Origin: a virus
Strand: one strand, 5' to 3'
DNA: 15,061 bases
Virus record (IMG/VR): IMGVR_UViG_3300021400_000072
Below, piece after piece: positions 1,487 to 15,053 of this stretch; the stretch's first letter is position 1; every line of letters begins with the position of its first letter. The notes beneath the pieces were generated by a model. It did not search any database. It saw only the letters and a list, made by a program, of their open reading frames with translations, and was not told where the DNA came from. Both the position numbers and the translations under genes were made by a program.

Positions 1487-1501
1487 AAAGGAGATAATGA
1501 T

Positions 1502-2968: not shown

Positions 2969-2994
2969 TTTAAGAAAAAGTGAGGTGATTTAAC

Positions 2995-3399
2995 ATGAGT
3001 AAATTAAAAATAAAAGACAAAAACGGGAAATGGGTTGAAATTACTGGTATAAAGGGAGACAAGGGCGATACTGGTAAACAGGGTATCCAAGGTGAACGTG
3101 GAGAAAAAGGTGATAAAGGTGACACAGGTGCATCGGGTCGTGACGGTGTAGACGGCATCTCCCCGACCGTAACTATAACCCTCATCACAGGCGGTCACAG
3201 AATCACTATCACGGATAAGGACGGCACAAAGACGGCTGATGTGATGGACGGAACTACTCCAAGCCTTACCAACTATGTGCAGTTTACCGACCTTGCCACA
3301 ACATCCAGAGCAGGTGCAATGTCCGCACAGGATAAGAGCAGACTTGATGATGTGTATGCGGATTATTCAAGCGCACTTACAGCATTGGGGGTGATTTGA
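2995..3399 (+). CDS. Collagen-like (G-X-Y)n repeat protein, probable fibre component
   Basis: 134-aa ORF; RBS gtgaggtga; GIKGDKGDTGKQGIQGERGEKGDKGDTGASGRDGVDG collagen-like run; stop TGA immediately followed by next ATG (3401). Confidence 0.55.
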   Translation: MSKLKIKDKNGKWVEITGIKGDKGDTGKQGIQGERGEKGDKGDTGASGRDGVDGISPTVTITLITGGHRITITDKDGTKTADVMDGTTPSLTNYVQFTDLATTSRAGAMSAQDKSRLDDVYADYSSALTALGVI

Positions 3400-3400
3400 T

Positions 3401-4075
3401 ATGGCAACTCCATTAACAGATAGCATCAATGCCTTGACCACTTATGCTAATGATGTCACAGGGGCATCGGATACAACATTGTCGGATGCAGTGCATACAC
3501 TTGGGAGTGGGTATGGCGGTTCAGCAACTCTCATCACCAAAACCATCACCGCCAATGGCACATATTCCGCAAGTGATGATTCCGCAGATGGATATTCAGA
3601 GGTTACGGTAAATGTACCAAGCAGTGGATCATCTGCATGGACTAATGTTGCGGAAACGAGTTATTATGTTAGTACGACATCAACGACCACAGAAACGGTG
3701 GACACATGGGCAACAGGACATAGCGAGATATGGACAAGGTCTAAGTGGGTGTATGTTCGCATAAGGGACACGGCAGGAAAAAGAAATGACTATTTTTATG
3801 GAAGCGATCAATTTTTTATGATTCCTTCCACTACTTCGACATCAACAACGTCTGGTATTCGGTATTATATGAGATGTAATTCAGACGGAATTTATTTTGC
3901 TAGTTCAACATCTGGAACAGCTGGATTCGGAGTGTACGCTGATACGCTTTACTCAGACGGTAGAATAAGAATCCGTAAAAGATATAGCAGTAATGCTTCT
4001 TTTACCGTTGACGGCACATACAAAGTCGAAGTCTACCTTCTTGACCCGCCAACAGGCGCACCAATCTTTGAATAA
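3401..4075 (+). CDS. Ser/Thr-rich hypothetical protein, likely distal fibre/structural domain
   Basis: 224-aa ORF translationally coupled to upstream gene (TGATATG overlap-type junction); stop TAA. Confidence 0.45.
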   Translation: MATPLTDSINALTTYANDVTGASDTTLSDAVHTLGSGYGGSATLITKTITANGTYSASDDSADGYSEVTVNVPSSGSSAWTNVAETSYYVSTTSTTTETVDTWATGHSEIWTRSKWVYVRIRDTAGKRNDYFYGSDQFFMIPSTTSTSTTSGIRYYMRCNSDGIYFASSTSGTAGFGVYADTLYSDGRIRIRKRYSSNASFTVDGTYKVEVYLLDPPTGAPIFE

Positions 4076-4092
4076 CGAAAGGAGAATTATAA

Positions 4093-4334
4093 TGTATCAG
4101 TATTACATTACCGAAGTCCGCAAGACTATAACAGGCGAATTTGAGCATGACAACTATTGGGTCTACGATGAGGACGAGCAGACCGCAAGGCTCAAGGGCG
4201 AAGGAAAATTCCACGAAGTTCTGAGCCGTGCGGCAACGTCCACATTTGCAGAGCACGGAGCAATCCTGTTTACATCCACATGCTATCCCATCAAGCACGA
4301 ATGCTATACACATGGAGCAGAGCAGGAAGAATAA
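4093..4334 (+). CDS. Small hypothetical protein (80 aa), paralogue of 4528..4803
   Basis: RBS aaaggag 7 nt upstream of ATG 4093 (the ORF-track start at 3993 lies inside the upstream gene and lacks an RBS); MYQYYITEV...ARLKGEGKFHEVLS...FTS motif shared with paralogue; stop TAA. Confidence 0.5.
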
Positions 4335-4343
4335 GGAGACGCC

Positions 4344-4513
4344 ATGCTGACATACTGCTTTGAGACCACAGCATCAGCAGGTACGGAGATACATCAAACC
4401 TGTATGCCACATATTCTAATGGCACACTGACTATTGATACGGTATCCAACACGTCAGCAAGGCGATTTCGTTCGGGACAGACGTATAATTATACGTTGAT
4501 TAAGTGGACATAA
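4344..4513 (+). pseudogene. Possible frameshifted or decayed small gene between the two paralogues (ATG 4344 with good RBS runs only 28 codons; an overlapping start-less frame stays open from 4364 to TAA 4511)
   Basis: RBS aaggagacgcc + ATG 4344; frame 0 stops at TGA 4428; alternate frame open 4364-4513 without a start codon. Confidence 0.2.
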
Positions 4514-4527
4514 AGGAGGAAATAATT

Positions 4528-4803
4528 ATGACTCAATACTATATCATGGAACTTCAAAAATATGCGGACGGTTCTTACGGTGACATTAAACACATTGCGT
4601 ATGACGAAGACCCCACAAGAGCAAGACTTAAAGGTGAAAGTAAGTTTTATGAAATTTTATCGGCAGCCGCTGTAAGTGAATTGCCAGTACATGCCGCTAT
4701 CATGTTTACATCTGAGGGTGTACCTGTAATGAATCAGAGGTACGTACATGCGATTCCGCAGGAAGAGGTTGAGCCTAAAGAGGAAACACCTGAAGATGAA
4801 TAA
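4528..4803 (+). CDS. Small hypothetical protein (91 aa), paralogue of 4093..4334
   Basis: RBS aaaggagg 8 nt upstream of ATG 4528 (the ORF-track start at 4504 would place the RBS inside the ORF); MTQYYIMEL...ARLKGESKFYEILS...FTS shared with paralogue; stop TAA. Confidence 0.5.
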   Translation: MTQYYIMELQKYADGSYGDIKHIAYDEDPTRARLKGESKFYEILSAAAVSELPVHAAIMFTSEGVPVMNQRYVHAIPQEEVEPKEETPEDE

Positions 4804-4945: not shown

Positions 4946-5443
4946 ATGGCCAATTTTAATCAAAATGGGATGAATGGTATAATACCTAATCAATATCCCT
5001 ATACTAACAATTTAATAATGAATACTCCTTACGATAATTATCTTGGGAGAAATAATGTAACTGTAAACGCAAATGGTCAAAATTATCCAAATCAATTTTT
5101 AAAATGCAGGCCAGTTGCATCTAAAGAATAGGCAAGAGCCGCTCAGATAGATTTAGATGGCTCTCTATGGGTTTTTACTGATGTTGGAAATTAGAAAATT
5201 TATACTAAACAAATAAATTATGATGGAACAGCAACTTTTAAAACCTATGCTTTAACTGCTGATGAAAATCCTTATAATTCTTCTGAATATGTTACAAAAG
5301 ATGAATTTAATAGTGTAATACAAAGTTTAATGGCGGCAATTCAGTCTCAACCCGTTACCCAAAAAGTTTAGACCGAATCCGCATAGAATAATAAAAATAC
5401 TGGACAAAGCAGTAATAATAATTTTATAGTTAAGAGGGTATAA
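4946..5443 (+). CDS. Hypothetical N/Q/Y-rich protein (165 aa) containing 4 in-frame TAG codons (5129, 5192, 5369, 5384) that would have to be read as sense
   Basis: RBS aaaggagaatg; frame stays open through four TAGs with no TAA/TGA until TAA 5441, in roughly 70% AT DNA; next gene's ATG 6 nt downstream. Confidence 0.5.
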
Positions 5444-5448
5444 TTATT

Positions 5449-5679
5449 ATGAATGTAAATCCGATTCAATTAATAAATATGATAAAAAACGGTCAAAATC
5501 CTCAACAGCTTATGATGAATATTTTAGGACAAAATAATCCTATTCTTAAAAATGCAATGAATCTAGCGCAAAACGGGAACACATCTGCTTTATAGATGAT
5601 TGCACGTAATTTAGCACAACAAAGAGGTTTGGATTTTGATACAGAATTTGCAAAATTTAAAAATTATTTAAATCAATAA
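5449..5679 (+). CDS. Small hypothetical protein (76 aa) with 1 in-frame TAG (5593)
   Basis: RBS aagagggta; ATG 5449; single in-frame TAG then continues to TAA 5677; followed 12 nt later by next gene with RBS. Confidence 0.45.
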
Positions 5680-5691
5680 TGGGAGATACAA

Positions 5692-6459
5692 ATGTTTAAT
5701 AATAATACTAATGGATATTCCTTATCTGATATTGCAGCCGCAACAGGCAATAATAATAATGGTTTTGGTTTTAATGGCGATGGAGCCTGGATCTTTTTCT
5801 TATTTATTTTAATGCTTGCGGGCGGTTGGAATAATAACGGTTTCGGTGGAAATGGACAGCCTGCTGTTATAGCTGATGTTCAACGTGGTTTTGATCAGAG
5901 TGCCCTTATGAATAGTTTAAACGGTGTGACTGCCGCAATAAATACTGGCTTTTCAAATGCGGAAGTATCTCGTTGTAATTCACAAGCGAATATCCTACAA
6001 ACATTAAACAATAATCAAGCAAATCTATCTACTCAATTAAATACAATAGCAATGAATCAACAGAACTGTTGTTGTTAGAATAGAGCGGGATTAGCTGATC
6101 TGAAGTATACTGTAGCTACAGAAGCATGTGCAGACCGCACAGCAGTTACAGATGCTTTAAGAGATGTAATTGCATCAAATACAGCAAATACACAGGCCAT
6201 TCTTGATAAACTTTGTCAACAATAGATTGAATCTCTCAAGGCTCAGAATCAACAGCTTCAGATGCAGGGTTATCTTGCTAATTTAGCAGCTTCTCAAAAT
6301 GCTCAAACTGGACAGATTCTTGCAGATAACGCGGCTCAGACAGCTACATTACGTCAGGCCTTAAATCCTACTCCTATCCCTGCATATGTTGTTGCAAATC
6401 CTAATGGATGCAACTGCGGAAACTGGAACGGATGTTGCGGTAACGGTTTTTATAACTGA
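5692..6459 (+). CDS. N/G/C-rich membrane-anchored protein (255 aa) with 2 in-frame TAGs (6076, 6223). N-terminus carries a Gly/Asn-rich segment followed by a hydrophobic helix (GFGFNGDGAWIFFLFILMLAGGW), resembling the tiny-TM, Gly-rich spore-associated peptides of Firmicutes. C-terminus is Cys-rich (NPNGCNCGNWNGCCGNGFYN).
   Basis: RBS gggagatacaa + ATG 5692; ORF-track pieces 5692..6078 and 6262..6459 are in the same frame and joined only by two TAGs; stop TGA 6457. Confidence 0.55.
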
Positions 6460-6474
6460 TAAGGAGGTTAATCC

Positions 6475-6930
6475 ATGGCTAGTTATGTAACAACTGCTGA
6501 TGCAACAGTAGCTTTAAATGGAACGATTCCCTTTAATAGTGTTTCTATTCCCTGTAACAAAGGTAATATTATTCCTATTGTTCCTGGAATTCTTAACTTA
6601 AATGGTAATACTTCTAATCGTTTTGCAAGATATGATATTACTCTCCAAGGAAATATTCAAATCCCTACAGGCGGAACAGTTACTCCTATAGCAATTGGAA
6701 TTACTCTTAATGGGGTAGTAATACCGTAGAGTGTTGCAATCGTAACACCTGCGGCCGCAGGAGAATATTGGCATGTAAATACTACAGCGTCTGTAACTGT
6801 TCCTTGTGGCTGTTGTTTAACCGTATCTGGAGCATATATAGACGGTACTGAAGATGACCCAGCTATAACTCCTACCCCTTCTATTTTAGTTAGACGTGGG
6901 GCTTCATTAACAGGAATCAGGACAGCATAA
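6475..6930 (+). CDS. Hypothetical protein (151 aa) with 1 in-frame TAG (6727)
   Basis: RBS aaggaggttaatcc + ATG 6475; frame continues past TAG 6727 to TAA 6928; antisense ORF 6657..7016 is therefore spurious. Confidence 0.5.
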
Positions 6931-6940
6931 GGAGGAAAAT

Positions 6941-7504
6941 ATGGGAACTGAAGCATTAAAAATGATGAAAGACCAACTAATGAGTTGTGTACAAAGTCAA
7001 CTTGGTGATATATCAAAGGCAGATGCCCATGAACTTGGTGAAGCTGTTGATATGATAAAAGATTTGTCTGAAGCGATATACTATTGTACTATTACTGATT
7101 CAATGGAAAAAGCAGAAGAAAAAGAAAAAACTTCTGTTAATAATATAAATTATTATACCACCCCATATCCAGATTATAGAAATATGGAACGCAATAATGG
7201 ATATATGTATTATTCTGGCGGGAATGGTGGTAATATGGGAGGTAATTCTAGCTCCAATGGCGGAACTACCTCTTATTATACTGAAATGATGAGAGATCCC
7301 CGTTAGGGAAGATCTCCAATAAGAAGAAGAATGTATATGGAAGGTAAAGAAATGCATAAAGATACAAGTTCTCAACTTCATGAACTAGAAGCATACCTTC
7401 AAGAACTTTCTTCAGACATAACAGAAATGATTAAAGACGCATCACCAGAAGAGAGAACTACATTACGTCAAAAAATGACCACATTAGCTAATAAAATTAA
7501 CTAA
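6941..7504 (+). CDS. Hypothetical protein (187 aa) with Gly/Asn/Tyr-rich low-complexity segment and 1 in-frame TAG (7304)
   Basis: RBS aaggaggaaaat + ATG 6941; frame open past TAG 7304 to TAA 7502. Confidence 0.5.
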
Positions 7505-7505
7505 T

Positions 7506-7820
7506 ATGTTTTTAATCAATAATGTTTATTGGAAACTCTCTTTTGTTGCTCCTAATTTTCCTTTATTACAAAGATTAAACGGAGAATTTTCAATAGGAGC
7601 ATGTGATAATCTTACTCGAACAATTTATATAAACGAAACGTTACAAGGAGATTTATTGCGGAAGGTACTTTGCCACGAAATAACACATGCTGCAATGTTT
7701 TCTTATAATGTTAATCTTTCTCTTGAGCAATAGGAATTGATAGCAGATTTAATTTCTACATATGGAGATGAGATTATTTATATAACAAATAAAATTTTTA
7801 ATAAATTAGGAAATATATAA
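7506..7820 (+). CDS. Small HExxH zinc-metallopeptidase-like protein (ImmA/IrrE-type motif VLCHEITHAAM) with 1 in-frame TAG (7731)
   Basis: ATG 7506 abuts upstream TAA (translational coupling); HEITH motif in translation; frame continues through TAG 7731 to TAA 7818; strong terminator follows. Confidence 0.45.
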
Positions 7821-7824
7821 ATTG

Positions 7825-7866
7825 ATAGCTGTCGGTTCTACTTTTAACCGACAGCTATTTTTTTTT
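7825..7866 (+). terminator. Rho-independent terminator (13-bp perfect stem atagctgtcggtt/aaccgacagctat, 7-nt loop, T9 tract)
   Basis: Direct inspection; lies right after the TAA of the HExxH gene. Confidence 0.85.
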
Positions 7867-7890
7867 AGAATTATAAAAAAGGGGAGATAA

Positions 7891-8400
7891 ATGAATCTAT
7901 TATAGACAATTGAAAAAATTATTCATCAAATTCGTCCTTTTGAAGGTATTAGTTCTTGTGTAATTTTTATTTTATTTATAATCGGCACAGTAATACAAAT
8001 TTCTCCTATAAAAATTAATCCTTGGGATTTTTTATTAGGGTGGATAGGAGAAAGATTTAATTCTGGAATTAATAAAAAAGTAGGGCAGTTAGAAAAGAAA
8101 ATAGATTAGCATATAGAAAGTAGTAAGAATAAAGATTTAAAATAGCAAAGATAGTATATTATTTCCTTTGTCGATGAAGGTGTTAATGGAAAACGACATA
8201 CAAAAGAATCTTTCTAGAATGCGATACGAGCTTGTGATGCATATGAGAAATATGTTCGTTAGAATGATATTGAAAATGGCGTTATCGTATCTTCTATTAG
8301 TGCCATTAGATTAAAATATGAACAACATTTAATTAATGCTGATTTTGCAACAGGCGAACATTATGTTGAAAATGCTAAATAGATGCAAAATGAAAACTGA
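7891..8400 (+). CDS. Membrane protein, holin-like: N-terminal hydrophobic helix, then coiled-coil/charged region. Contains 7 in-frame TAGs (7903, 8107, 8143, 8152, 8215, 8260, 8380).
   Basis: RBS aaaaggggagataa + ATG 7891; 169-codon frame with 7 TAG and zero TAA/TGA until TGA 8398; reads naturally if TAG is Gln (KIDQHIESS..KQQRQYI..FQNAIRACDAYEKYVRQND); flanked by terminators on both sides. Confidence 0.55.
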
Positions 8401-8470: not shown

Positions 8471-8519
8471 CAAAAAGCCTCGATATGAGTCATATTCATA
8501 TCGAGGCTTTATTTTTTTA
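8471..8519. terminator. Bidirectional rho-independent terminator (15-bp perfect stem aaagcctcgatatga/tcatatcgaggcttt flanked by A5 and T7 runs) between convergent genes
   Basis: Direct inspection; separates + holin-like gene and - vWA gene. Confidence 0.85.
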
Positions 8520-10022
8520 TCTAATTACGGCATATCTTTCACTATTAATAGCTTCAAGCATTAAGTCGTAACCTGTCTTACCAGTAATAACTTGCTTGAA
8601 AATAGTAGGAGACATACCGCTTACAAACGATACATTAGGACCTGCATCCAGGATTGTATTCTGGCGGGCATCCACATTCCAATAGACCAGCTTAGGAAGC
8701 TGTAGGCCATAAGCTGCCCACTTCTGACGAATCTTCTCCATCTCTGTTGAAGCAGAACGCTTTGTCCAATGACTATCACTCCAATAACCAGTACCACTAT
8801 CAATTTCCATATCAGAAATAACTACAATGGTCTTAGGAATGTCACTCTGCTTAACACCTCTCTTAGTTGCTGTCTTTAGAAGTAAATCAAATACAGCTTC
8901 TAGGTTAGTATTATCACAAAGATTTGTCTTGTAGATACGGCGAGCCTTATCTACAAAATCAATACCTTCTGTCTTAATCAGCTGAGGATGTGAAGCAAAA
9001 CTAATATAGTAATTCTTAAAAGGACCACCAATACGTTCTGCGCAATACAAACCTAGACTGATTGCTACGTTAAGAGGAGCCGCCGCATCTTTACCAGTCA
9101 TAGAACCAGAAGTATCTACGACACACATCATGCTACAATCCTTACCATTAAGATAATCAGGAAGATTATCCCAATACTTATTAATCATAGCACGTTCAGT
9201 TTCACTAAGAGCCTCAAAGTTGTAAGACCATGTTGAAGCCTTAACTGCCTTAGCTACCACTTCATAAGGGTAAAGTACAGAAGCATTAACCTTTGTATTC
9301 TTATCTTTTGCAAAAGATTCATACTTCTTAGCGATAATATCACGTCTTGCAAAAGCATTACGATAAATAATACCTGCGCGAGAAGGAATCTTATCAAACT
9401 CAATCTTATCCCATTCGTTGGCGGACATCAGTCTTTCAAGAACATTAATCTTAACTCTTAGCTTTGAAAGCATCTGACGATACTGCTTAGAAGTAACTCC
9501 TAAATACTGTCTAATCTTCTTTGCTCTTGCAATTGTTTCCTTACTTGAAGCATTTTCAGAAGGAAGCCACTTAGCGATAAGGCTAATACCATTCTTCTTA
9601 CATGCCATATCCTCACGAAGCTGCTTTTCAATAAGAGCCATTACATTCTTTTCAACAGGAGTGTCGAAAAGTTCGAACAGGTCATCATATCTACCATATT
9701 CAGGAAGATATTCAATCAAGTTACGGGCGCGGGCAGGCTTGTTCTCTGCCAACCAGCGGAAGCATGTACGGAAGAATCTACGTTCACCCTGACCACCACG
9801 GCAGTCACGAATATAGAATAGACACTTCAGTGCAAGAACTGAATCCTCTTCAAAGGCGTTCTTGAAAAGAAGGATACAATCTTCGTCTGTACGCTTACGA
9901 TAAGCGGCACCCATAGCAAACAATGTATAAACGTCACTATTTAACTTTTTATAAGCGAGTGCTCCATTCTCTGTTCTCTTGTAATTGAAATCGTTTGAAA
10001 GCTGATTCATAAATGTATTCAT
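8517..10022 (-). CDS. vWA-domain protein with MIDAS motif (VVDTSGSM). Its N-terminal alpha-helical module resembles the DUF2828 family and the TROVE (Ro60-like) module (TENGALAY...LFAMGAAYRK).
   Basis: 501-aa uninterrupted ORF; DxSGS MIDAS signature near residue 300; N-terminal motif pattern similar to the Ro60 N-x-x-G-x-x-A-F...L-F/I-x-L-G motif; family assignment from memory, not searched. Confidence 0.7.
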   Translation of the reverse strand: MNTFMNQLSNDFNYKRTENGALAYKKLNSDVYTLFAMGAAYRKRTDEDCILLFKNAFEEDSVLALKCLFYIRDCRGGQGERRFFRTCFRWLAENKPARARNLIEYLPEYGRYDDLFELFDTPVEKNVMALIEKQLREDMACKKNGISLIAKWLPSENASSKETIARAKKIRQYLGVTSKQYRQMLSKLRVKINVLERLMSANEWDKIEFDKIPSRAGIIYRNAFARRDIIAKKYESFAKDKNTKVNASVLYPYEVVAKAVKASTWSYNFEALSETERAMINKYWDNLPDYLNGKDCSMMCVVDTSGSMTGKDAAAPLNVAISLGLYCAERIGGPFKNYYISFASHPQLIKTEGIDFVDKARRIYKTNLCDNTNLEAVFDLLLKTATKRGVKQSDIPKTIVVISDMEIDSGTGYWSDSHWTKRSASTEMEKIRQKWAAYGLQLPKLVYWNVDARQNTILDAGPNVSFVSGMSPTIFKQVITGKTGYDLMLEAINSERYAVIR

Positions 10023-10047
10023 AATCCTTTTATCTCCTTTACTTTTG

Positions 10048-10251
10048 TCAAAGTATGTCTTTATTTAAATTGGAAAATTTTCTTACTCTTTCTTCAAATG
10101 TCATATTTGGAGTAGCTATTGCAATTGAACGTGCTTTTAAATATCCTAATGCTGTACATCCTTTATGATTTTTAGCATATAAAATTGCACGCTTACATAG
10201 AATAAGACTCATTCCAGTTTTTTCTCTTAATATTTTTACTTTTTTTATCAT
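10048..10251 (-). CDS. Small hypothetical protein (67 aa); faint resemblance to a UBA-like / EF-Ts N-terminal fold (LREKTGMSLILCKRAI)
   Basis: ORF only; sits between the vWA gene and the tRNA array on the same strand. Confidence 0.3.
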   Translation of the reverse strand: MIKKVKILREKTGMSLILCKRAILYAKNHKGCTALGYLKARSIAIATPNMTFEERVRKFSNLNKDIL

Positions 10252-10352
10252 ATTTAAAAAATAAATTTTATTCTTTGCCTATCTATTTCTCTGCAAATAA
10301 GTAATTTTATTAAAAATAATTTTGTTTTCTTTTTCATAAAATACTCCTTTAA

Positions 10353-10424
10353 TACTCCCAGCGGGAATCGAACCCACATCGAAGGCTTAGAAGGCCTTTG
10401 CTTTATCCTTTAAACTATAGGAGT
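10353..10424 (-). tRNA. tRNA-Arg (anticodon TCT)
   Basis: Hand-folded cloverleaf: 7-bp acceptor (one G-U), T-loop TTCGATT, anticodon stem AAGGC/GCCTT, loop CTTCTAA. Confidence 0.7.
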
Positions 10425-10520
10425 ATAATAAGGCTCTTTGCTACTTCTTTTCCCAACCTTCTGAGTGATGGTACTTACACAGCGGTTCGCTTCAGATTTT
10501 CAGAATTACCTTATATTAAA

Positions 10521-10592
10521 TATCCCATACAAGAATCGAACTCGCATTTTTAGGGCCGTAACCTAACGGTTTATCCATTAGCCTAATGGGAT
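10521..10592 (-). tRNA. tRNA-Arg (anticodon ACG), slightly atypical (G37, one D-stem mismatch)
   Basis: Perfect 7-bp acceptor ATCCCAT/ATGGGAT; anticodon stem TTAGG/CCTAA, loop TTACGGC; T-loop TTCGATT. Confidence 0.55.
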
Positions 10593-10597
10593 ATAAT

Positions 10598-10667
10598 TGC
10601 GCCACTACGAATCGAACGTAAATCTCCCCCGTATGCAAGGGGGTATGTTACCATTACACCACGGCGC
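10598..10667 (-). tRNA. tRNA-like with 8-nt anticodon loop TTGCATAC (contains CAT; Met/Ile2-like with one extra nucleotide). Possible pseudogene or noncanonical tRNA.
   Basis: Acceptor GCGCCGT/GTGGCGC (two G-U pairs); anticodon stem CCCCC/GGGGG enclosing 8 nt; 4-bp T-stem; positions 8-9 are GG. Confidence 0.4.
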
Positions 10668-10772
10668 GAGCATTTATCATATTTTTTGTTTGTTTACGGT
10701 TAGCTACTCCGCACCCTAAACAACTTTTTTGATAAATGTTAATACAATACATTAATTAACTTTTGTACTAAA

Positions 10773-10845
10773 CAGGAGCGGAAGGATTCGAACCTTCATA
10801 ATCACGGTGTTGGAGACCGTTGCTGTACCATTGAGCCACGCCCCT
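10773..10845 (-). tRNA. tRNA-Trp (anticodon CCA)
   Basis: Perfect T-stem GAAGG/CCTTC with TTCGAAT loop; anticodon stem ACGGT/ACCGT, loop CTCCAAC; 7-bp acceptor with one G-U. Confidence 0.7.
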
Positions 10846-10852
10846 TTAGTTT

Positions 10853-11272
10853 TTAACGATACCCGTTAGAAAACCCAGGAAGATTACAATACTCACGAAT
10901 AAATTCTTCAGGAGAATTATTAAAAAGACCATCTAACTGTTCAAGAGAAAGATTAGTTTCTTTTACAATAGGATAAATCTCATACTGGAGATTTTCGCTC
11001 ATAAGTTCATTAAGAACATCGGTATATTCATCATCTGCTCCTGAAGTAGAATCTTCCATATATTCATCTAATTCATCTTCATCCCAACCTATTTCGTTGG
11101 CGGCAGCCGCTTCCAAATCATCCATAATAGAAGAATATTCTTCCATAATAGCATAAGACTCGTCAATAGCCATTTCTTCAACTTCTTCTTCAGTACCCTC
11201 TGCAACAAAATAGGATACCATTCCGTGCATTCCATTATACATCTGTTCACAAGCGATTACTGCATAAAGCAT
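10853..11272 (-). CDS. Highly acidic protein (139 aa, D/E-rich), possible DNA-mimic/anti-restriction-type protein (speculative)
   Basis: RBS aaaggaag 9 nt upstream; stop TAA; very high Asp/Glu content in translation. Confidence 0.5.
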   Translation of the reverse strand: MLYAVIACEQMYNGMHGMVSYFVAEGTEEEVEEMAIDESYAIMEEYSSIMDDLEAAAANEIGWDEDELDEYMEDSTSGADDEYTDVLNELMSENLQYEIYPIVKETNLSLEQLDGLFNNSPEEFIREYCNLPGFSNGYR

Positions 11273-11552
11273 AGTTTAAATCTTCCTTTCTTTTTTTAAT
11301 AATGCACACCACAAAATTGTACACAGGTTAAATACATGTGATGTGCTATAACCTGTTTTGCCTAGCGTTTCAGATGTGTTTTAGTCCTAATTTATTTAGG
11401 ACAATCACGCATAGTCCCATTCACATCAGGGGCTTTAGGTCTCACTGTATGTAGCCGGATTCACCCTTCCTATCCCCCACTCATACAGGATGGTTGATCG
11501 TTTTTATACCGCATCTCCATTCTACGGTCAACCGAGCATTTGACTCAGTTTA

Positions 11553-11635
11553 AGCCAGCAATAGGATTTGAACCTATATCGTTTTAGGCCTTACACTCCT
11601 TGGGGGAGCCGCTTTACCAATTAAGCTATGCTGAC
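11553..11635 (-). tRNA. Type II (long variable arm) tRNA-like, anticodon CAA (Leu) by position but with poor anticodon-stem pairing; possibly degenerate
   Basis: Good acceptor (GTCAGCA/TGCTGGC), D-arm GCTT/AAGC and T-arm ATAGG/CCTAT. The anticodon region folds best as a CTCC/GGAG stem with a 5-nt loop. The variable arm forms no clear hairpin. Confidence 0.4.
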
Positions 11636-11643
11636 ATTTTTAG

Positions 11644-11715
11644 CAGGCCCAGATGGAATCGAACCATCACATCGTGAGTCAAAGTCACGTGCGCTAGCCG
11701 TTACGCTATGGGCCC
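11644..11715 (-). tRNA. tRNA-Gln (anticodon TTG)
   Basis: Anticodon stem CGTGA/TCACG, loop CTTTGAC; T-arm GATGG/CCATC; acceptor GGGCCC/GGGCCT. Confidence 0.7.
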
Positions 11716-11734
11716 ATATACAAGAGACATTATT

Positions 11735-11806
11735 AGTAGACCGCGGGATTCGAACCCGCATATCAAAATTCGCAGTTTTGTATCTTATCCATTAGATTAA
11801 ATCCAT
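11735..11806 (-). tRNA. tRNA-like element with intact T-arm, anticodon arm (loop CTGCGAA, anticodon GCG) and D-arm, but a 5' acceptor strand that cannot pair with the 3' strand; probable pseudo-tRNA or tRNA mimic
   Basis: T-stem GCGGG/CCCGC, anticodon stem CAAAA/TTTTG, D-stem ATCT/AGAT all perfect; expected 5' strand GGTCTAC is absent (observed ATGGATT). Confidence 0.35.
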
Positions 11807-11884
11807 TAATTTTTTTTATTGCTGTGTGTCTCTTTATCAACTTTCTATATATATTATAATAAAAATTTTTATTTTTTTCAAATA

Positions 11885-11959
11885 AGCACAGAGTGGGATT
11901 TGAACCCACGAATAACGGTTTTGCAGACCGCTGCGGTAACCAGGCTGCGCCATCCGTGC
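11885..11959 (-). tRNA. tRNA-Cys (anticodon GCA)
   Basis: T-stem GTGGG/CCCAC; anticodon loop CTGCAAA; 7-bp acceptor with one G-U. Confidence 0.7.
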
Positions 11960-11963
11960 AAAA

Positions 11964-12003
11964 GAAAGGGATATGAAACGTATAAATTTCATACCCTTTT
12001 TTA
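11964..12003. terminator. Hairpin terminator (about 13-bp stem with one bulge, loop cgtataaa, T-runs on both sides) between - gene 12006..12194 and tRNA-Cys
   Basis: Direct inspection. Confidence 0.6.
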
Positions 12004-12005
12004 AA

Positions 12006-12194
12006 TTAATCGACCGATTTTACTTCAATATATTTAGGCTTGATTAAAACCTGTTTCTGTAATGCATGAGTTATCTGGAACATGCGGAAACGTGCTTCCC
12101 GCCTAGCTTCATCTCGTTCTTTTTTATTCTCAATATCATTAACAGGATTAAAAGATTCCAATGCATTAGTGCCTATTGTTTTCCACTTAGACAT
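12006..12194 (-). CDS. Small basic hypothetical protein (62 aa)
   Basis: ORF with RBS aaggagag upstream; followed (transcript sense) by a hairpin terminator. Confidence 0.4.
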   Translation of the reverse strand: MSKWKTIGTNALESFNPVNDIENKKERDEARREARFRMFQITHALQKQVLIKPKYIEVKSVD

Positions 12195-12208
12195 TAATAA
12201 ACTCTCCT

Positions 12209-12556
12209 TTAGTTAAGAAAATCCTTCAAAATTCTTTCAAATTCATTGCTGGTAATAGGAGTCGCTACAGGTCTCTTTTCTTTCTGCGAAGGTGACTCCA
12301 GAACAGCTTCTACTAAATCTACCAGCAAAGGATTTTCATTTTCATATGTTTTAACATATTTAAGAATTTCTTTATTAAGAGCCTGAATCTTTTCTTCAAG
12401 GTTTGCTTTTGCGATAGCCTTTTCTGCTTCAAATCTACGTTTTTCTTCTGCTTCTTTACGTTTCTCTTCTGCTTCTGTCTTCTTTTTGAGTTCAGCTTCA
12501 ATACATTCTTTTTCTGAATCAAAAATCTCATCCAGAACTTCACTATAAAATTTCAT
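12209..12556 (-). CDS. Lys/Glu-rich coiled-coil hypothetical protein (115 aa)
   Basis: RBS gagaggaaaaaagaATG; charged heptad-like EEKRKEAEEKRR repeats. Confidence 0.5.
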   Translation of the reverse strand: MKFYSEVLDEIFDSEKECIEAELKKKTEAEEKRKEAEEKRRFEAEKAIAKANLEEKIQALNKEILKYVKTYENENPLLVDLVEAVLESPSQKEKRPVATPITSNEFERILKDFLN

Positions 12557-12597
12557 TCTTTTTTCCTCTCTTTTTTAAAATATTTTTATTAACGAAA

Positions 12598-12671
12598 GGT
12601 GGCTAACGGGACTTGAACCCGTAACAGGCGGTACCACAAACCGCTGGACTACCAAATTGTCCTATAACCAC
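12598..12671 (-). tRNA. tRNA-His (anticodon GTG), discriminator C
   Basis: Anticodon stem GCGGT/ACCGC, loop TTGTGGT; T-stem ACGGG/CCCGT; discriminator C73 as expected for His. Confidence 0.7.
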
Positions 12672-12673
12672 AG

Positions 12674-12747
12674 CTGGAGTGGTGAGACTCGAACTCACGG
12701 CATCGTGATCCCAAATCACGCATTCTAGCCAACTGAATTACACCCCA
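12674..12747 (-). tRNA. tRNA-Pro (anticodon TGG)
   Basis: Anticodon stem CGTGA/TCACG, loop TTTGGGA; D-stem ATTC/GAAT; T-stem GTGAG/CTCAC; 2 nt from tRNA-His. Confidence 0.7.
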
Positions 12748-12806
12748 ATATACAAGACACATAAATAAGTATTGATCTACCCATTGATCTATTTTGTCTA
12801 TTCTGG

Positions 12807-12851
12807 CAACAAAAATCGGATTTGAACCGATAACATATACTAAACGTATAA
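12807..12851 (-). tRNA. tRNA 3'-half remnant (acceptor 3' strand + T-arm) followed by a short hairpin; no matching 5' half
   Basis: T-stem ATCGG/CCGAT with ATTTGAA loop; no complementary acceptor strand downstream; flanked by attgctgtgtgtgtc motif. Confidence 0.3.
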
Positions 12852-12880
12852 ATTGCTGTGTGTGTCTTATTATTAAATTA

Positions 12881-13114
12881 TTAACCTAACATAGCAAAAT
12901 CTATAAATCTTTTTACATCATCTGCATTATAACAAACCAATTCCATCTCAGGAATATTTGAATCTTCAAACATCTTAGCAAAAGCAATATATTGAGTAAG
13001 ACGACTCTTTAGATTTAATCTATCGCCTTCTTCTGTTACTAATTCAACTTTTCCTGTACACTTATCAACTGTTTCAAAAAACTTTTTAATATCATTAATA
13101 TGATATAACTTCAT
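12881..13114 (-). CDS. Small hypothetical protein (77 aa)
   Basis: RBS aaaaggagaataaATG; stop TAA. Confidence 0.45.
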   Translation of the reverse strand: MKLYHINDIKKFFETVDKCTGKVELVTEEGDRLNLKSRLTQYIAFAKMFEDSNIPEMELVCYNADDVKRFIDFAMLG

Positions 13115-13235
13115 TTATTCTCCTTTTATATAATCTCTATAAGTACAATATTCTTCAAACGTTCCTTTGAAGCCATTTTCAACAGCCTTAGAATATTCTT
13201 CATTTAGAACTTTTGAATAACTTATAGATTCCTAA

Positions 13236-13541
13236 TTAAACTACATAACCGATTGCTAACTCATCTGTATACTCTCTTTCTCTTGCGGTCATTGCAAGAA
13301 AACGTTTAATGTCAGAATGGCTCCACCAGTGTCCGCCATGTCTACCTTTTTCTTCTCCAAACGCCGGTCTACGCTTAGAAACTTTAGGTTTACAAAGAGA
13401 ACATGAACAATGAATTTTACCTTTACTATACTGATGAAGGTGAGGATACCATTCACTACCATCTCTTTCTTTACAAATTTTCTGCTTTCTGATTGCCTTT
13501 GTCCAATCATTATGTCTCTTTTCTGCAAGTGTTCTACACAT
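13236..13541 (-). CDS. Cys/His-rich small protein (101 aa), probable zinc-binding; embedded in tRNA array
   Basis: Internal ATG (13539-13541) has RBS aaggag 8 nt upstream; the longer ORF-track start (13616) would overlap tRNA-Ser; CSCSLC ... HGGHWWSH motifs. Confidence 0.45.
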   Translation of the reverse strand: MCRTLAEKRHNDWTKAIRKQKICKERDGSEWYPHLHQYSKGKIHCSCSLCKPKVSKRRPAFGEEKGRHGGHWWSHSDIKRFLAMTAREREYTDELAIGYVV

Positions 13542-13574
13542 GATAAACTCCTTTGAAACTAGGTTAACAGAAAG

Positions 13575-13659
13575 CGGTGCGAGAGGGATTCGAACCCCCA
13601 GCCCAATTAAGAGCAACGGTTTTCAAGACCGCACCTCCTCCCCACTAAGGTACCGCACC
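13575..13659 (-). tRNA. tRNA-Ser (anticodon TGA), type II
   Basis: 85 nt; anticodon stem + loop CTTGAAA; long variable arm; T-loop TTCGAAT. Confidence 0.65.
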
Positions 13660-13842
13660 ATATCAAGGCTTAAAAAGTTTCATTTTCTCTTTTTTCAGAG
13701 GTCAATTCCTATTAAGAATAAGAAATAGAAAACTTTCAAATAAAAGAAACTTGTCTATTTTACGACCAAAATTCTCCTAAGAATCATGTTAAATCTTGTA
13801 ATTTTAAACCCATTAAAAATAAAATTGCCGTATAAGCCTTAG

Positions 13843-13930
13843 CGCGGATGAGTGGATTCGAACCACCGGACCCAAATGTAGGGTCAATACCTTAGCAGGG
13901 TACCGCATTAAACCTCTCTGCCACATCCGC
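13843..13930 (-). tRNA. tRNA-Ser (anticodon GCT), type II
   Basis: 88 nt; perfect acceptor GCGGATG/CATCCGC; variable-arm hairpin GACCC/GGGTC; anticodon loop CTGCTAA. Confidence 0.7.
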
Positions 13931-13939
13931 AAATTGGGA

Positions 13940-14012
13940 TAGCCCGCCGGAGAATCGAACTCCGATTTCTGGTTTTAGAGACCAGCGTCTTAAACCGTTT
14001 GACCACCGGGCC
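13940..14012 (-). tRNA. Amber suppressor tRNA (anticodon CTA, decodes UAG); type I, amino-acid identity not determinable by eye
   Basis: Perfect 5-bp anticodon stem CTGGT/ACCAG with 7-nt loop CTCTAAA (U33, anticodon CUA, A37); perfect T-stem CGGAG/CTCCG with TTCGATT loop; acceptor 6/7 bp. Confidence 0.7.
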
Positions 14013-14137
14013 ATACCAAGACAGATTAAAAATTGCTTTAATTAGATTACAAGTCCAATGCAAAAATTAAAATAGATTGCTGTTTCTGTCTTTCATCTTA
14101 TAAATATATTATATAATAATTTTTTTAAAAAATCAAA

Positions 14138-14211
14138 TGCATGATATAGGATTTGAACCTATGCCCCTTTCGGTGTAAACGAAATGCTCATCCCAGCTGA
14201 GCTAATCATGC
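14138..14211 (-). tRNA. tRNA-Val (anticodon TAC)
   Basis: Perfect acceptor GCATGAT/ATCATGC; anticodon stem TTTCG/CGAAA, loop TTTACAC; D-stem GCTC/GAGC. Confidence 0.75.
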
Positions 14212-14379
14212 ATATTGGCGGGAAACTCCCGCCTAATCCGACTTTTGAGTTTCACAGGTATCGGGGAGGAACCAGGGATTAAATCCAGCCCACCTTAATA
14301 TTTAGTTTCCCATCTCCTCGGGGTAACTAACAAACCTGAGGGTCTTCCATATCGCACGTGCATATTGATATAGAATAAA

Positions 14380-14455
14380 TGGACCGTGTGGGAATTGAAC
14401 CCACCTGATTTTCTGTGTGCAAGACAGATGACCACCCCGTGCAGTCCCACAGCCC
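14380..14455 (-). tRNA. tRNA-Ala (anticodon TGC)
   Basis: Anticodon stem TCTGT/ACAGA, loop CTTGCAC; T-stem GTGGG/CCCAC; acceptor GGGCTGT/ACGGTCC with two G-U; 7-nt variable region. Confidence 0.55.
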
Positions 14456-14681
14456 AGTACTAAGAGGCTTGATTACCCTCTTTACAGCAGTTTGATCCTG
14501 CTTGCCGATGACGTTATAGGTCCGCCGCCCGCACATTTATTTGCTAAAACACGGTTTCCAGGGTATCTTTGTATAATCACATTACCGCAAAGAGGTATAT
14601 ACCTTTATCATATTATAGACGCGTTTCTATAATATTCTCCCAAATTTTTTATTGTACATAGATGGTAAAGAGACAATAAAA

Positions 14682-14755
14682 TACTACGAAGTGGACTCGA
14701 ACCACTGACGACTTCCTTATCAGAGAAGCATTCTAACCTACTGAATTATCGTAGT
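14682..14755 (-). tRNA. tRNA-Ile (anticodon GAT)
   Basis: Perfect acceptor ACTACGA/TCGTAGT; T-stem AGTGG/CCACT; anticodon loop CTGATAA. Confidence 0.75.
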
Positions 14756-14969
14756 AAATAAGGGTTAAAAGGAAAGGAAAATGCATTTTTACTTCGTAAT
14801 AACCTTTCTCAGTTAACCATCTAATTTTTATGCCTGTCTAGCCTTATACTAGAATATTACATATGCGATAAGTTGTTCTGTTGCATCGCTATTTTGAACT
14901 ATCCCTGTCTCCTTATCAAAATTAGACACCTTTACTATATTTCAAGGCTTTTTGCGGCGTCCCGCTTAG

Positions 14970-15053
14970 TCCTGGGAGAGGGAATCGAACCCACTCGGTG
15001 CCGAAGCCATGGGATTTACAGTCCCACCCGTCTCCTTAGCGGTCTACCCCAGG
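14970..15053 (-). tRNA. tRNA-Tyr (anticodon GTA), type II
   Basis: 84 nt; anticodon stem TGGGA/TCCCA, loop CTGTAAA; long variable arm; T-stem has one mismatch. Confidence 0.6.

Follow-up and report, generated by a model that had tools for sequence, protein, structure and literature searches.

General features of the locus

The window analyzed here is a 15,061-nucleotide stretch of the IMG/VR virus record IMGVR_UViG_3300021400_000072. Its source contig has 87 kb, of which about 21 kb were examined. The phage origin assumed in the earlier note agrees with the tail-fibre PHROG matches and with the occurrence of relatives on 100–240 kb viral contigs. A megablast search of the window against deposited phages returned no match. 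The only host hint comes from distant matches in Clostridia MAGs (prophage-like relatives, 28–43% identity), which are too weak to name the host. The window contains tail-fibre genes, seven adjacent + strand genes that carry TAG codons in frame, and a − strand tRNA array:

62–4803: tail-fibre genes
4946–5443, + strand: g4946, 165 aa, TAGs at 5129, 5192, 5369 and 5384
5449–5679, + strand: g5449, 76 aa, TAG at 5593
5692–6459, + strand: g5692, 255 aa, phrog_16490, one predicted TM segment, TAGs at 6076 and 6223
6475–6930, + strand: g6475, 151 aa, phrog_20016, TAG at 6727
6941–7504, + strand: g6941, 187 aa, TAG at 7304 within the conserved motif RDxR-E-GRSP
7506–7820, + strand: g7506, 104 aa, HExxH, weak SprT/DUF6782-like match, phrog_1233, TAG at 7731
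7891–8400, + strand: g7891, 169 aa, phrog_37604, N-terminal TM segment, TAGs at 7903, 8107, 8143, 8152, 8215, 8260 and 8380
10352–15053, − strand: 17 tRNA genes in an array, with small ORFs between them
13842–13930, − strand: tRNA-Ser(GCU), starting 9 nt downstream of tRNA(CUA)
13940–14012, − strand: putative amber-suppressor tRNA(CUA) with a tRNA-Glu-type body, as predicted by ARAGORN, Rfam RF00005, covariation, an identity-feature table and a leave-one-out classifier
14137–14212, − strand: tRNA-Val(UAC), on the other flank of tRNA(CUA)

TAG is a sense codon in seven adjacent genes

The 17 in-frame TAGs that the earlier note had placed about 6 kb from the tRNA were reproduced. They are distributed over the seven genes between 4946 and 8400 as 4, 1, 2, 1, 1, 1 and 7, at 5.6–8.9 kb from tRNA(CUA). 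The frames of these genes close up solely when TAG is read through. PHROG and homologue alignments span the TAGs, the frames are conserved in hundreds of homologues, and TAG positions are common to several strains. None of the 20 genes in the window terminates with TAG (TAA 16, TGA 4). The window thus shows the hallmarks of an alternative-code phage, namely in-frame TAG in conserved genes, no TAG terminator and a phage-encoded cognate suppressor. TAG is a sense codon in the conserved genes of the window, and the interrupted frames are real genes, as the earlier note had assumed.

The TAG codons are unevenly distributed. No TAG occurs in the 1491 codons of the tail-fibre genes or in the 1062 codons of the protein genes of the tRNA-array module; in other members of the clade, large tail/baseplate-like genes are densely recoded, with 13–31 TAGs each. 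No holin or endolysin family was found among the seven TAG genes, whose PHROGs are of unknown function, with one weak HExxH metallopeptidase-like match. The description of the window as carrying TAG-rich lysis and late genes is therefore not borne out, since its TAG genes have no assigned function and its clearly late tail-fibre genes are free of TAG. Suppressor-gated timing of lysis, to which that description was linked, is a hypothesis of Borges et al.

Structure and conservation of the tRNA(CUA) gene

ARAGORN predicted a tRNA with the anticodon cta at 13937–14013 (−), and Rfam RF00005 matched 13940–14012 (−) over the full model with 55.6 bits (E 6.7e-10; gathering score 29). The two tools thus bear out the tRNA fold and the CUA anticodon read earlier from the letters. 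The perfect 5-bp anticodon stem (CUGGU/ACCAG) and the loop CUCUAAA, giving U33, C34-U35-A36 and A37, are also as first described, and the anticodon corresponds to a + strand TAG at 13976–13978. The T loop is UUCGAUU, G18G19 is present and the variable region has 4 nt (AAAU). The gene folds as a type I elongator cloverleaf according to RF00005, with one acceptor-stem mismatch. The acceptor stem, taken in the canonical register (that of Rfam), reads G1.U72, G2-C71, C3-G70, C4-G69, C5-G68, G6-C67 and the mismatch G7.G66, followed by A73. The ARAGORN and Rfam registers differ by 1 base at the 5′ end. The 8-position acceptor register of ARAGORN, with an extra U(-1)-A73 pair, was set aside; this pair is missing from the L045 allele and is therefore read as probably coincidental.

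Five divergent alleles of tRNA(CUA) from related phages keep the cloverleaf, with 96.9% of cells paired compared with 32–44% in slid controls. Among these alleles 12 of 20 pairs have changed on both sides, and 0 of 500 shuffles performed equally well. The alleles share one anticodon loop, and their stems show covariation. The slot between tRNA-Ser(GCU) and tRNA-Val(UAC) is syntenic in L040, L042, L043, L045 and L046. Judged from these comparisons, tRNA(CUA) is a genuine, canonical and conserved phage tRNA that is kept by compensatory change.

The thermodynamic MFE of the bare sequence (−26.9 kcal/mol) is not the cloverleaf (−24.0 kcal/mol); a non-cloverleaf MFE is common for tRNA sequences without modifications. 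The 3′ CCA is not encoded; the gene is separated from tRNA-Ser by the 3′ trailer UCCCAAUUU. When the tRNA array was scanned with Rfam at permissive settings, tRNAs were the only matches, and no theta/HDV-like ribozyme adjoins the suppressor. The G7.G66 mismatch, the unencoded CCA and the deviating MFE would fit a decayed or silent tRNA copy, with the TAGs as true stops in fragmented genes or pseudogenes, or with TAG readthrough by another factor. This explanation is, however, practically negligible in view of the invariant loop and co-varying stems, a slot that is syntenic in all strains, frames that run through the TAGs in hundreds of homologues, TAG positions common to several strains, and the correlation of tRNA type with TAG meaning across the family described below. 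The remainder of the 87-kb source contig may hold a further suppressor, an aaRS or a release factor.

Amino acids aligned with the TAG sites

When the TAG sites of the window were compared with related loci in a likelihood test restricted to the longest non-overlapping ORFs, Glu was the best-fitting residue (logL E −27.4, K −41.6, Q −46.5). An all-frames version of the test, which gave an E/Q tie, was dropped because antisense frames make spurious TAG-with-CAA/CAG pairs. These pairs arise from the antisense of the Leu codons CTA, TTG and CTG, and disappear after the restriction to the longest ORFs. For column statistics, close database relatives were left out. Of the 12 usable TAG sites, 7 have E as their majority residue and 2 have Q. 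As controls in these alignments, E forms the majority at 31/38 true E sites, while at true Q sites the majority is Q in 34/43 and E in 2/43. The "Q" printed in the closest database proteins was rejected as support for Gln, as the DNA there is TAG translated by convention (7/7 and 2/2 sites checked).

Several individual columns are strongly Glu. The TAG within the RDxR-E-GRSP motif of g6941 falls in a column where 124 of 150 representatives have E and 2 have Q. The two columns of g5692 have E 110/120 and 107/120, and aa62 of g4946 has E 97/120, the leftover "Q" being partly TAG translated by convention. In g7891, aa109 (E 111/120) and aa5 (E 93/120) are Glu columns, and the others are mixed: aa73 has E 55 and K 38, aa85 has K 88, aa88 has Q 64, with genuine Gln codons in distant homologues, and aa124 has D 43, Q 26 and E 15. 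At the single TAG sites of three genes the relatives carry GAA, in six relatives for g5449 (some strains 98.7% identical), in eleven same-clade loci for g6475, and in L016 and L030 for g7506. Overall, the alignment of in-frame TAGs with Gln in homologues that marks Gln-type suppressors was not found here, and Glu predominates.

Codon exchanges among close relatives point to the same residue. Near-identical strains, 99–100% identical elsewhere, differ solely by TAG versus GAG or GAA, as at both sites of g5692. The same-clade codon events comprise 23 between TAG and a Glu codon and 7 between TAG and a Gln codon, and ordinary Glu-Gln replacement accounts for 1 of 540 non-synonymous same-clade events. 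At E-type TAG sites CAA or CAG never occurs within the clade. In addition, the TAG block is poor in GAG (GAA 44, GAG 4, TAG 17) relative to the tail-fibre block (GAA 76, GAG 30).

Two related clades differ in the residue aligned with TAG

The family survey covered 129 related loci, of which 37 belong to the clade of the window and 58 to a sister clade that served as a positive control for Gln in the same pipeline. In the clade of the window, 418 distinct TAG sites were counted, and the majority residue is E at 198, K at 48, D at 26 and Q at 26; among the 81 TAG columns that are ≥80% conserved, 67 are E, 10 are Q and none is Lys. The sister clade has 534 TAG sites (Q 211, Lys 44) and 110 conserved columns (Q 81, E 6). 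A minority Gln signal is seen in the clade of the window, in 10/81 conserved columns, in 7/30 same-clade codon events and at aa88 of g7891.

Every Glu-type tRNA(CUA) falls within the Glu clade, and every Gln-type one within the Gln clade. In the sister clade, tRNA(CUA) carries G73, its U1.U72 is mismatched and its D loop has 7–8 nt. This agreement between tRNA(CUA) type and TAG meaning across the family is the best available evidence for this tRNA as the probable decoder, and it supports the decoding role that the earlier note had assigned to it. The two clades (the sister clade including L023–L027 and L090–L138, for example) share a gene block with g6941, g5692 and TROVE-like families, a tRNA array adjoining the TROVE-like gene, and many in-frame TAGs. 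They differ in that TAG of the sister clade aligns with Gln, in 81 of its 110 conserved columns, and its tRNA(CUA) carries G73.

A different amino acid, either Lys, one anticodon change away from CUU, or pyrrolysine, is extremely improbable. Lys is second-best in some tests, with the second-highest logL, the K-majority column at aa85 of g7891 and 48/418 sites in the clade. For the window, Glu nevertheless leads Lys by 14 log units, Lys is found in 0/81 conserved columns, and the Gln clade has the same Lys background (44/534). The "tRNA-Pyl" printed by ARAGORN is merely its default name for CUA and was set aside. In tRNA-Pyl the anticodon stem has 6 bp and the variable loop 3 nt, the D loop is small and lacks G18G19, and the acceptor and D stems are one base apart. 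In the tRNA(CUA) of the window the anticodon stem has 5 bp and the variable region 4 nt, G18G19 is present, and two bases (U8, G9) separate the acceptor and D stems; no pyl genes were seen in the part of the source contig examined (about 21 of its 87 kb).

Features of the tRNA body

An identity-feature table was used to compare tRNA(CUA) with the 11 tRNA-Glu and 14 tRNA-Gln of the family, together with an anticodon-free isotype classifier (canonical-position PSSM, leave-one-out). Anticodon-masked Glu/Gln covariance models were dropped because in half of the sequences MAFFT set the gap of the variable loop within the T stem. The classifier assigned tRNA(CUA) to Glu (19.9 bits), followed by Ile (15.1) and Arg (12.8), with Gln outside the top 4. 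It is crude (71% overall, recovering 10/11 Glu and 11/14 Gln), and the margin for tRNA(CUA) is about 5 bits. Pairwise similarity was uninformative, as the best non-CUA match is tRNA-Glu(CUC) (53/72) with Cys, Arg and Asp near.

The identity set of GluRS and the rules for GlnRS were taken from Giege & Eriani 2023 (PMC9976931). The D stem of tRNA(CUA) has 3 bp (G10-C25, U11-A24, C12-G23) and a non-Watson-Crick A13.A22, corresponding to the "augmented D helix" read by GluRS. The 13:22 pair is also A.A in the tRNA-Glu of L031 and L032, and is U13.G22 in E. coli; the GUC/GAC D stem is also present in one tRNA-Gln of the close strain L045. Nucleotide 47 is absent, as in Glu-type tRNAs, a weak discriminator that is common in the tRNA-Gln of the family. 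The acceptor top (G1.U72, G2-C71, C3-G70, A73) is identical to that of tRNA-Glu(UUC) in L001 and L032 and to that of 0/14 tRNA-Gln, and it is unlike the G1-C72 and U2-A71 of E. coli. The anticodon-loop set of GluRS (U34, U35, C36, A37) is incomplete: U35 and A37 are present and C34 fits CUC isoacceptors, but position 36 is A, so that by its anticodon tRNA(CUA) is a suppressor rather than a tRNA-Glu. For GluRS of E. coli, C36 is among the strong determinants (PMC9976931). In the GlnRS set (G73, G2-C71, G3-C70), G2-C71 alone fits, as tRNA(CUA) has A73 and C3-G70; G73 is found in 14/14 tRNA-Gln of the family.

Conversion of Glu to Gln by GatCAB needs U1-A72, and a long D loop acts as an antideterminant (Nakamura et al. 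2010, PMC2811023). The first pair of tRNA(CUA) is G1.U72, and its D loop between positions 13 and 22 has 9 nt, compared with 7–8 nt in the tRNA-Gln and 8–11 nt in the tRNA-Glu of the family, so that neither the U1-A72 pair nor a D loop without supernumerary base is found.

These features bear on two alternatives that involve Gln. The conventional code 15 would have tRNA(CUA) glutaminylated and TAG read as Gln, with the Glu-aligned sites explained as GAG-to-TAG mutations in which Glu-to-Gln replacement is tolerated. TAG is Gln in every earlier phage study, and the Lak-phage paper explained its own occasional TAG/E columns in the same way, as tolerated Glu-to-Gln replacements. Most amber suppressors are glutaminylated in E. 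coli, the U35 and the weak 1:72 pair of tRNA(CUA) are compatible with GlnRS, and TAG interchanges with CAA or CAG at some sites (the 7 events above), in addition to the ten conserved Gln columns. We nevertheless consider this reading quite improbable. The same pipeline that gives 67/81 conserved Glu columns here gives Gln for the sister clade, genuine Gln sites are Glu-majority in merely 2/43, and Glu-Gln exchange is as rare as 1/540 against 23 TAG/Glu-codon events. The absence of CAA/CAG from E-type sites within the clade, and A73 and C3-G70 against the G73 of all 14 family tRNA-Gln, also argue against it.

Ambiguous decoding, in which a Glu-charged suppressor is partly converted by GatCAB or mischarged by GlnRS so that TAG yields a Glu/Gln mix and is placed where either is tolerated, is unlikely. 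It would fit the observation that TAG/Glu and TAG/Gln codon exchanges are both far commoner than ordinary Glu-Gln exchange, and that conservation is lower at TAG sites than at ordinary Glu sites (E-majority 7/12 versus 31/38). The hosts of the family may also be Clostridia, and the indirect Gln pathway is used by many Clostridia. G1.U72 is a weak first pair and not the antideterminant G1-C72 (PMC9976931). On the other side, TAG occupies motif positions at which Glu is strongly conserved, tRNA(CUA) has the long D loop that acts as a GatCAB antideterminant and no U1-A72, and CAG-to-TAG is a single transition, which could by itself account for the excess of Gln-to-TAG if TAG is Glu.

Proposed reading and its implications

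Taken together, the alignments and the tRNA features suggest, with a probability of about 0.8, that 13940–14012 (−) is a functional phage amber suppressor that decodes the in-frame UAGs and inserts most probably Glu, and that TAG is Glu in this clade rather than following code 15. Glu was missing from the candidate identities Gln, Trp, Lys and Tyr listed in the earlier note. In the proposed mechanism, tRNA(CUA) would be a tRNA-Glu(CUC)-like body with A in place of C at position 36. It would keep the features read by GluRS (3-bp D stem, 13.22 mismatch, no nucleotide 47, U35, A37) and would lack those needed by GlnRS (G73, G3-C70) and by GatCAB (U1-A72, short D loop). Since the GluRS features are kept and the others are missing, the host GluRS would be expected to charge it with Glu, which would stay unconverted. 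This assumes a host or phage GluRS that tolerates A36. CCA would be added after trimming of the 9-nt trailer before tRNA-Ser.

It is also likely that UAG = Glu is a natural code undescribed in viruses or bacteria, which evolved in a sizeable and apparently rumen-associated clade of large phages beside a UAG = Gln sister clade, with the meaning set by the tRNA-Glu or tRNA-Gln body of tRNA(CUA). The phage stop recoding described so far comprises TAG = Gln and TGA = Trp (or Gly). If true, GluRS would be a third synthetase system recruitable by phages, besides GlnRS and TrpRS. The two sister clades would form a natural pair in which one codon has two meanings, suited to the study of codon reassignment and of the Glu/Gln choice by tRNA bodies. 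Databases and virus gene callers that assume code 15 would mistranslate every TAG of the clade as Gln. An annotated Q where the phage most likely has E was seen at 9/9 checked sites, and the scale of this error would extend to thousands of homologues (7,892 matches for one gene). Natural Glu-inserting amber suppressors are also possible parts for synthetic biology.

Comparison with known systems

No report of TAG/UAG read as Glu in phages or bacteria was found in the literature. The recodings observed by Borges et al. are TAG to Gln and TGA to Trp alone, and the host GlnRS and TrpRS were argued to be uniquely easy to hijack. Some phage suppressors were predicted by Kienbeck et al. to carry Trp, Ile or Tyr besides Gln, and none Glu. 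Code 15 phages (crAss-like phages, Lak phages, phAss-1 and the Firmicutes-infecting recoded clades of Borges et al.) resemble the phage studied here in being large phages with a probably standard-code host. They have in-frame TAG in conserved genes, avoid TAG as a terminator and carry a tRNA(CUA) in a tRNA array; the suppressor-carrying module is free of TAG and structural genes are densely recoded, here in the relatives. They differ in that their TAG aligns with Gln and their suppressors are predicted to be Gln, whereas here Glu and a Glu-type body are found. Suppressors of the supE type (tRNA-Gln with CUA) share the loop CUCUAAA and UAG decoding with tRNA(CUA), whose body, discriminator and D arm are not Gln-like.

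Two further systems combine UAG with Glu. Engineered E. coli tRNA-Glu(CUA) amber suppressors were reportedly made by Kleina, Normanly, Miller and co-workers in 1990, and are said to be weak and to insert some Gln too. They share with the phage tRNA a tRNA-Glu body with a CUA anticodon and Glu insertion at UAG in bacteria, as proposed here, but they are laboratory constructs and tRNA(CUA) is a natural, conserved phage gene. In the peritrich ciliate nuclear code (NCBI table 30), TAA and TAG are both Glu. There, as proposed for the clade of the window, a stop codon has been reassigned to Glu by a tRNA-Glu-derived suppressor. The ciliate code operates in a eukaryotic nuclear genome and covers TAA and TAG genome-wide, whereas in this bacterial virus TAG alone would be reassigned and TAA and TGA serve as stops.

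TAG codons in the window

An 87,363-bp ENA metagenome contig (L041) includes a stretch 100% identical to the window, and dozens of the window's relatives are found on IMG/VR contigs of 100–240 kb. No close relative of the window was found among deposited phages.

Gene blocks of the window
62-4803, + strand: tail-fibre-like genes with collagen repeats and PHROG tail-fibre matches; 0 TAG in 1491 codons
4946-8400, + strand: seven small TAG-bearing genes; 17 in-frame TAG
8517-13541, - strand: TROVE/vWA-like protein and small ORFs between tRNAs; 0 TAG in 1062 codons

The 17 in-frame TAGs described in the earlier note were reproduced, all within 4946-8400 (+), at positions 5129, 5192, 5369, 5384, 5593, 6076, 6223, 6727, 7304, 7731, 7903, 8107, 8143, 8152, 8215, 8260 and 8380. 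Because no window gene ends in TAG (TAA 16 and TGA 4 among 20 genes) and the alignments of PHROG profiles and hundreds of homologues run unbroken across the TAGs, TAG is a sense codon in the window. A TM segment is present in two of the seven TAG-gene proteins, and an HExxH motif in one. The earlier description of TAG-rich lysis and late genes is not supported in the window: no holin or endolysin families were identified among the TAG genes, and the late tail-fibre genes carry no TAG.

The tail-fibre block has a GC content of 0.40–0.48, versus 0.27–0.39 in the TAG block. Its GAG share is high and it lacks TAG, while the tail genes of other members of the clade contain 23–31 TAGs. This module may have been acquired recently, from a relative that uses the standard code or has few TAGs. 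Downstream of the collagen-repeat tail-fibre protein (62-1486), a 488-aa protein (1502-2968, +) carries short NTFG..C repeats in tandem, about 17 in all, and had no match in Pfam or PHROG. Two paralogous small genes (4092-4334 and 4528-4803, +; MYQYYITEV... and MTQYYIMEL...) lie between the tail-fibre and TAG blocks.

The amber suppressor tRNA

ARAGORN called 17 tRNA genes on the - strand of the window (10352-15053), including one with anticodon cta at 13937-14013 (-); its 'tRNA-Pyl' label is simply ARAGORN's name for CUA and was set aside. Independently of ARAGORN, the Rfam tRNA model matches 13940-14012 (-) end to end (55.6 bits, E 6.7e-10). The sequence reads GGCCCGG UG GUCA AACGGUUUA AGAC G CUGGU CUCUAAA ACCAG AAAU CGGAG UUCGAUU CUCCG GCGGGCU A. 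It contains the canonical features previously claimed, namely an anticodon stem of 5 perfect pairs and, in the loop CUCUAAA, U33, C34-U35-A36 and A37. The acceptor stem begins with G1.U72 and has a G7.G66 mismatch at its base, CCA is not encoded, and tRNA-Ser(GCU) begins 9 nt downstream. ARAGORN draws an additional U(-1)-A73 pair, which cannot form in the allele of the related locus L045, so the canonical register was adopted. For the bare sequence, the MFE fold (-26.9 kcal/mol) differs from the cloverleaf (-24.0), as is usual for tRNAs.

The tRNA(CUA) is a genuine gene under selection, because its slot is constant, its helices are kept by paired changes and its anticodon loop is invariant. 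The order tRNA-Ser(GCU), tRNA(CUA), tRNA-Val(UAC) is unchanged in all close strains. Five distinct alleles from related phages keep all helices (96.9% of cells paired) and share an identical anticodon loop, with both-sided changes in 12 of the 20 pairs. None of 500 shuffles was as good, and pairing with slid partners reached 32–44%. The tRNA described in the earlier note is confirmed, and the data support its proposed role as a cognate suppressor.

Amino acid assigned to TAG in the window

Related loci have TAG, GAA or GAG opposite the window TAGs, and CAA/CAG are rare. A likelihood test with the substitution profile taken from the same alignments gave logL values of -27.4 for E, -41.6 for K and -46.5 for Q; a version run with antisense frames as well was rejected as misleading. 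Columns were counted over 120–150 homologues per gene from large protein databases.

Residues in homologues at TAG columns
g7891 aa109: E 111/120
g5692 aa129: E 110/120
g5692 aa178: E 107/120
g4946 aa62: E 97/120
g7891 aa5: E 93/120
g6941 aa122, within the conserved motif RDxR-E-GRSP: E 124/150, Q 2

At each of these sites, the nearest database relatives carry 'Q'. The underlying DNA is TAG, translated with table 15 by the gene caller (7/7 and 2/2 sites checked), and these residues were rejected as support for Gln. Database proteins of the window's clade (P0001, P0122; loci L040, L041 and L042) are table-15 translations displaying each TAG as Q. If TAG means Glu, database entries of this clade are systematically wrong and searches give a false impression of Gln. 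After removal of close relatives, 12 usable sites remained, with E as the majority residue at 7, Q at 2 and one site each for K, G and D (logL E -22.8 vs Q -27.9). As a control in the same alignments, true window Glu sites were E-majority in 31/38 cases; true Gln sites were Q-majority in 34/43 and E-majority in 2/43.

Strains whose g5692 proteins are otherwise 99–100% identical differ solely by TAG versus GAG/GAA at two sites. Within the window's clade, 23 exchanges of TAG were with Glu codons and 7 with Gln codons; among 540 non-synonymous events, 1 was an ordinary Glu-Gln replacement. The minority Gln-type sites are explicable if TAG means Glu, since CAG-to-TAG is a single transition. Plain Gln offers no comparable explanation for the 23 Glu-type events. 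It is very improbable here, and mixed Glu/Gln decoding is unlikely. We consider that TAG is predominantly Glu in the window, rather than the expected Gln, with a probability of about 0.8. GAG is depleted in the TAG block (GAA 44, GAG 4, TAG 17), compared with GAA 76/GAG 30 and GAA 84/GAG 19 in the neighbouring blocks.

Family-wide comparison

A further 80 loci carrying the g6941 family were added, and the TAG meaning was inferred separately for each of 129 loci. The result was bimodal, with loci close to the window (among them L073, L078 and L068) all favouring Glu and distant loci (such as L098 and L100) all favouring Gln.

TAG meaning in single loci and clades
L073: 84 sites, E 40, Q 8, delta-logL +56
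L078: E 26, Q 1, delta-logL +50
L068: delta-logL +44
L098: E 8, Q 29, delta-logL -57
L100: delta-logL -57
Window's clade, de-duplicated: 37 loci, 418 distinct TAG sites; majority E 198, K 48, D 26, Q 26; 81 columns ≥80% conserved, 67 E and 10 Q
Sister clade, de-duplicated: 58 loci, 534 distinct TAG sites; majority Q 211, K 44, E 44; 110 columns ≥80% conserved, 81 Q and 6 E

One pipeline thus recovers the textbook Gln in the sister clade and gives another answer for the window's clade. In members of the window's clade such as L062, L064, L073 and L078, recoding is dense in large tail/baseplate-like proteins (13–31 TAGs each), and reciprocal X/E columns are visible by eye.

Identity elements of the suppressor

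All tRNAs of the loci were set on canonical numbering, and 11 tRNA-Glu were compared with 14 tRNA-Gln.

Features of family tRNA-Glu and tRNA-Gln
D stem: Glu, 3 bp (G10-C25/U11-A24/C12-G23) with 13:22 mismatch; Gln, varied, often 4 bp
D loop: Glu, 8-11 nt; Gln, 7-8 nt in 13/14
Discriminator: Glu, mostly A73; Gln, always G73

In the window tRNA(CUA), the D stem is of the Glu type with A13.A22, the D loop is 9 nt long and the discriminator is A73. At the acceptor top, G1.U72, G2-C71 and C3-G70 are those of tRNA-Glu(UUC) in loci L001 and L032 and match 0 of 14 tRNA-Gln; the slot alleles of L045 and L008 have C1-G72 and G2.U71, the commonest tRNA-Glu pattern. An anticodon-free PSSM classifier (leave-one-out recovery: Glu 10/11, Gln 11/14) scored the window tRNA(CUA) as Glu (19.9 bits), then Ile (15.1), with Gln not in the top four. 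In the Gln clade, the suppressors carry G73 and short D loops, and their U1.U72 is mismatched. Glu-type tRNA(CUA) all occur in the Glu clade and Gln-type all in the Gln clade; the TAG meaning of L008 is a tie, with 8 sites only.

GluRS reads U11-A24, the 13-22(-46) element, the absence of nucleotide 47, U35 and A37, and GlnRS depends on the acceptor stem including the discriminator (Giege & Eriani 2023, PMC9976931). Bacterial GatCAB requires U1-A72 and rejects the extra D-loop base of tRNA-Glu (Nakamura et al. 2010, PMC2811023). Because its features map onto these rules, the window tRNA(CUA) resembles a tRNA-Glu(CUC) in which A has replaced C36. It is predicted to be charged with Glu and to escape amidation. 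The obvious weak point of this prediction is A36, as C36 is a strong GluRS determinant in E. coli (Giege & Eriani 2023, PMC9976931).

Other tRNAs and array genes

In the tRNA at 10596-10669 (-), the anticodon stem is CCCCC/GGGGG (5 bp) and the loop, UUGCAUAC, has 8 nt. ARAGORN reports it as '?(Cys|Met)(gcat)' and Rfam as tRNA (43.5 bits). L002, L003 and L040-L046 share this conserved tRNA, which may decode four bases (quadruplet) or may just be unusual. The 83-nt 'tRNA-Trp(CCA)' (11553-11635, -) has C33 in place of U33; its anticodon stem is 4 bp long and its variable region 16 nt. Together with tRNA-Gln(UUG) it forms an insertion in some strains only (window, L045). In L006, a canonical AT-rich tRNA(UCA) (2186-2257), possibly an opal suppressor, adjoins tRNA-Gln instead.

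A 501-aa DUF2828/DUF7788/vWA protein (8517-10022, -) is TROVE-like and matches PHROG 850 'RNA-binding protein'; among the relatives that a search with this protein retrieved, its gene stands at the head of the tRNA array. In L042 (12825-15193) a LAGLIDADG endonuclease ORF, possibly an intron or intein, interrupts this gene.

Distant g7891 homologues occur in the standard-code temperate phages L048 and L049, next to the integrase and just after the tail genes, and in Lachnospiraceae, Oscillospiraceae and 'Clostridiales' MAGs (L050-L058; Clostridia, distant), a hint that the wider family infects Bacillota.

Comparison with known systems

Phage-encoded amber suppressors and TAG recoding are well known, with TAG read as Gln only in the literature searched, and suppressor control of timing is a literature hypothesis (Borges et al.). 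Among 180 suppressors, Kienbeck et al. predicted the isotypes Gln, Trp, Ile and Tyr but never Glu; the window suppressor has a Glu-type body. The Lak paper noted occasional TAG/E columns and interpreted them as Gln. In the literature searched, no phage or bacterium is reported to read UAG as Glu. To our knowledge, the peritrich ciliate nuclear code is the only UAG-to-Glu code. The present case is best classed as a Glu-type amber suppressor, together with a code in which TAG stands for Glu, in a large-phage clade whose sister clade has TAG as Gln.
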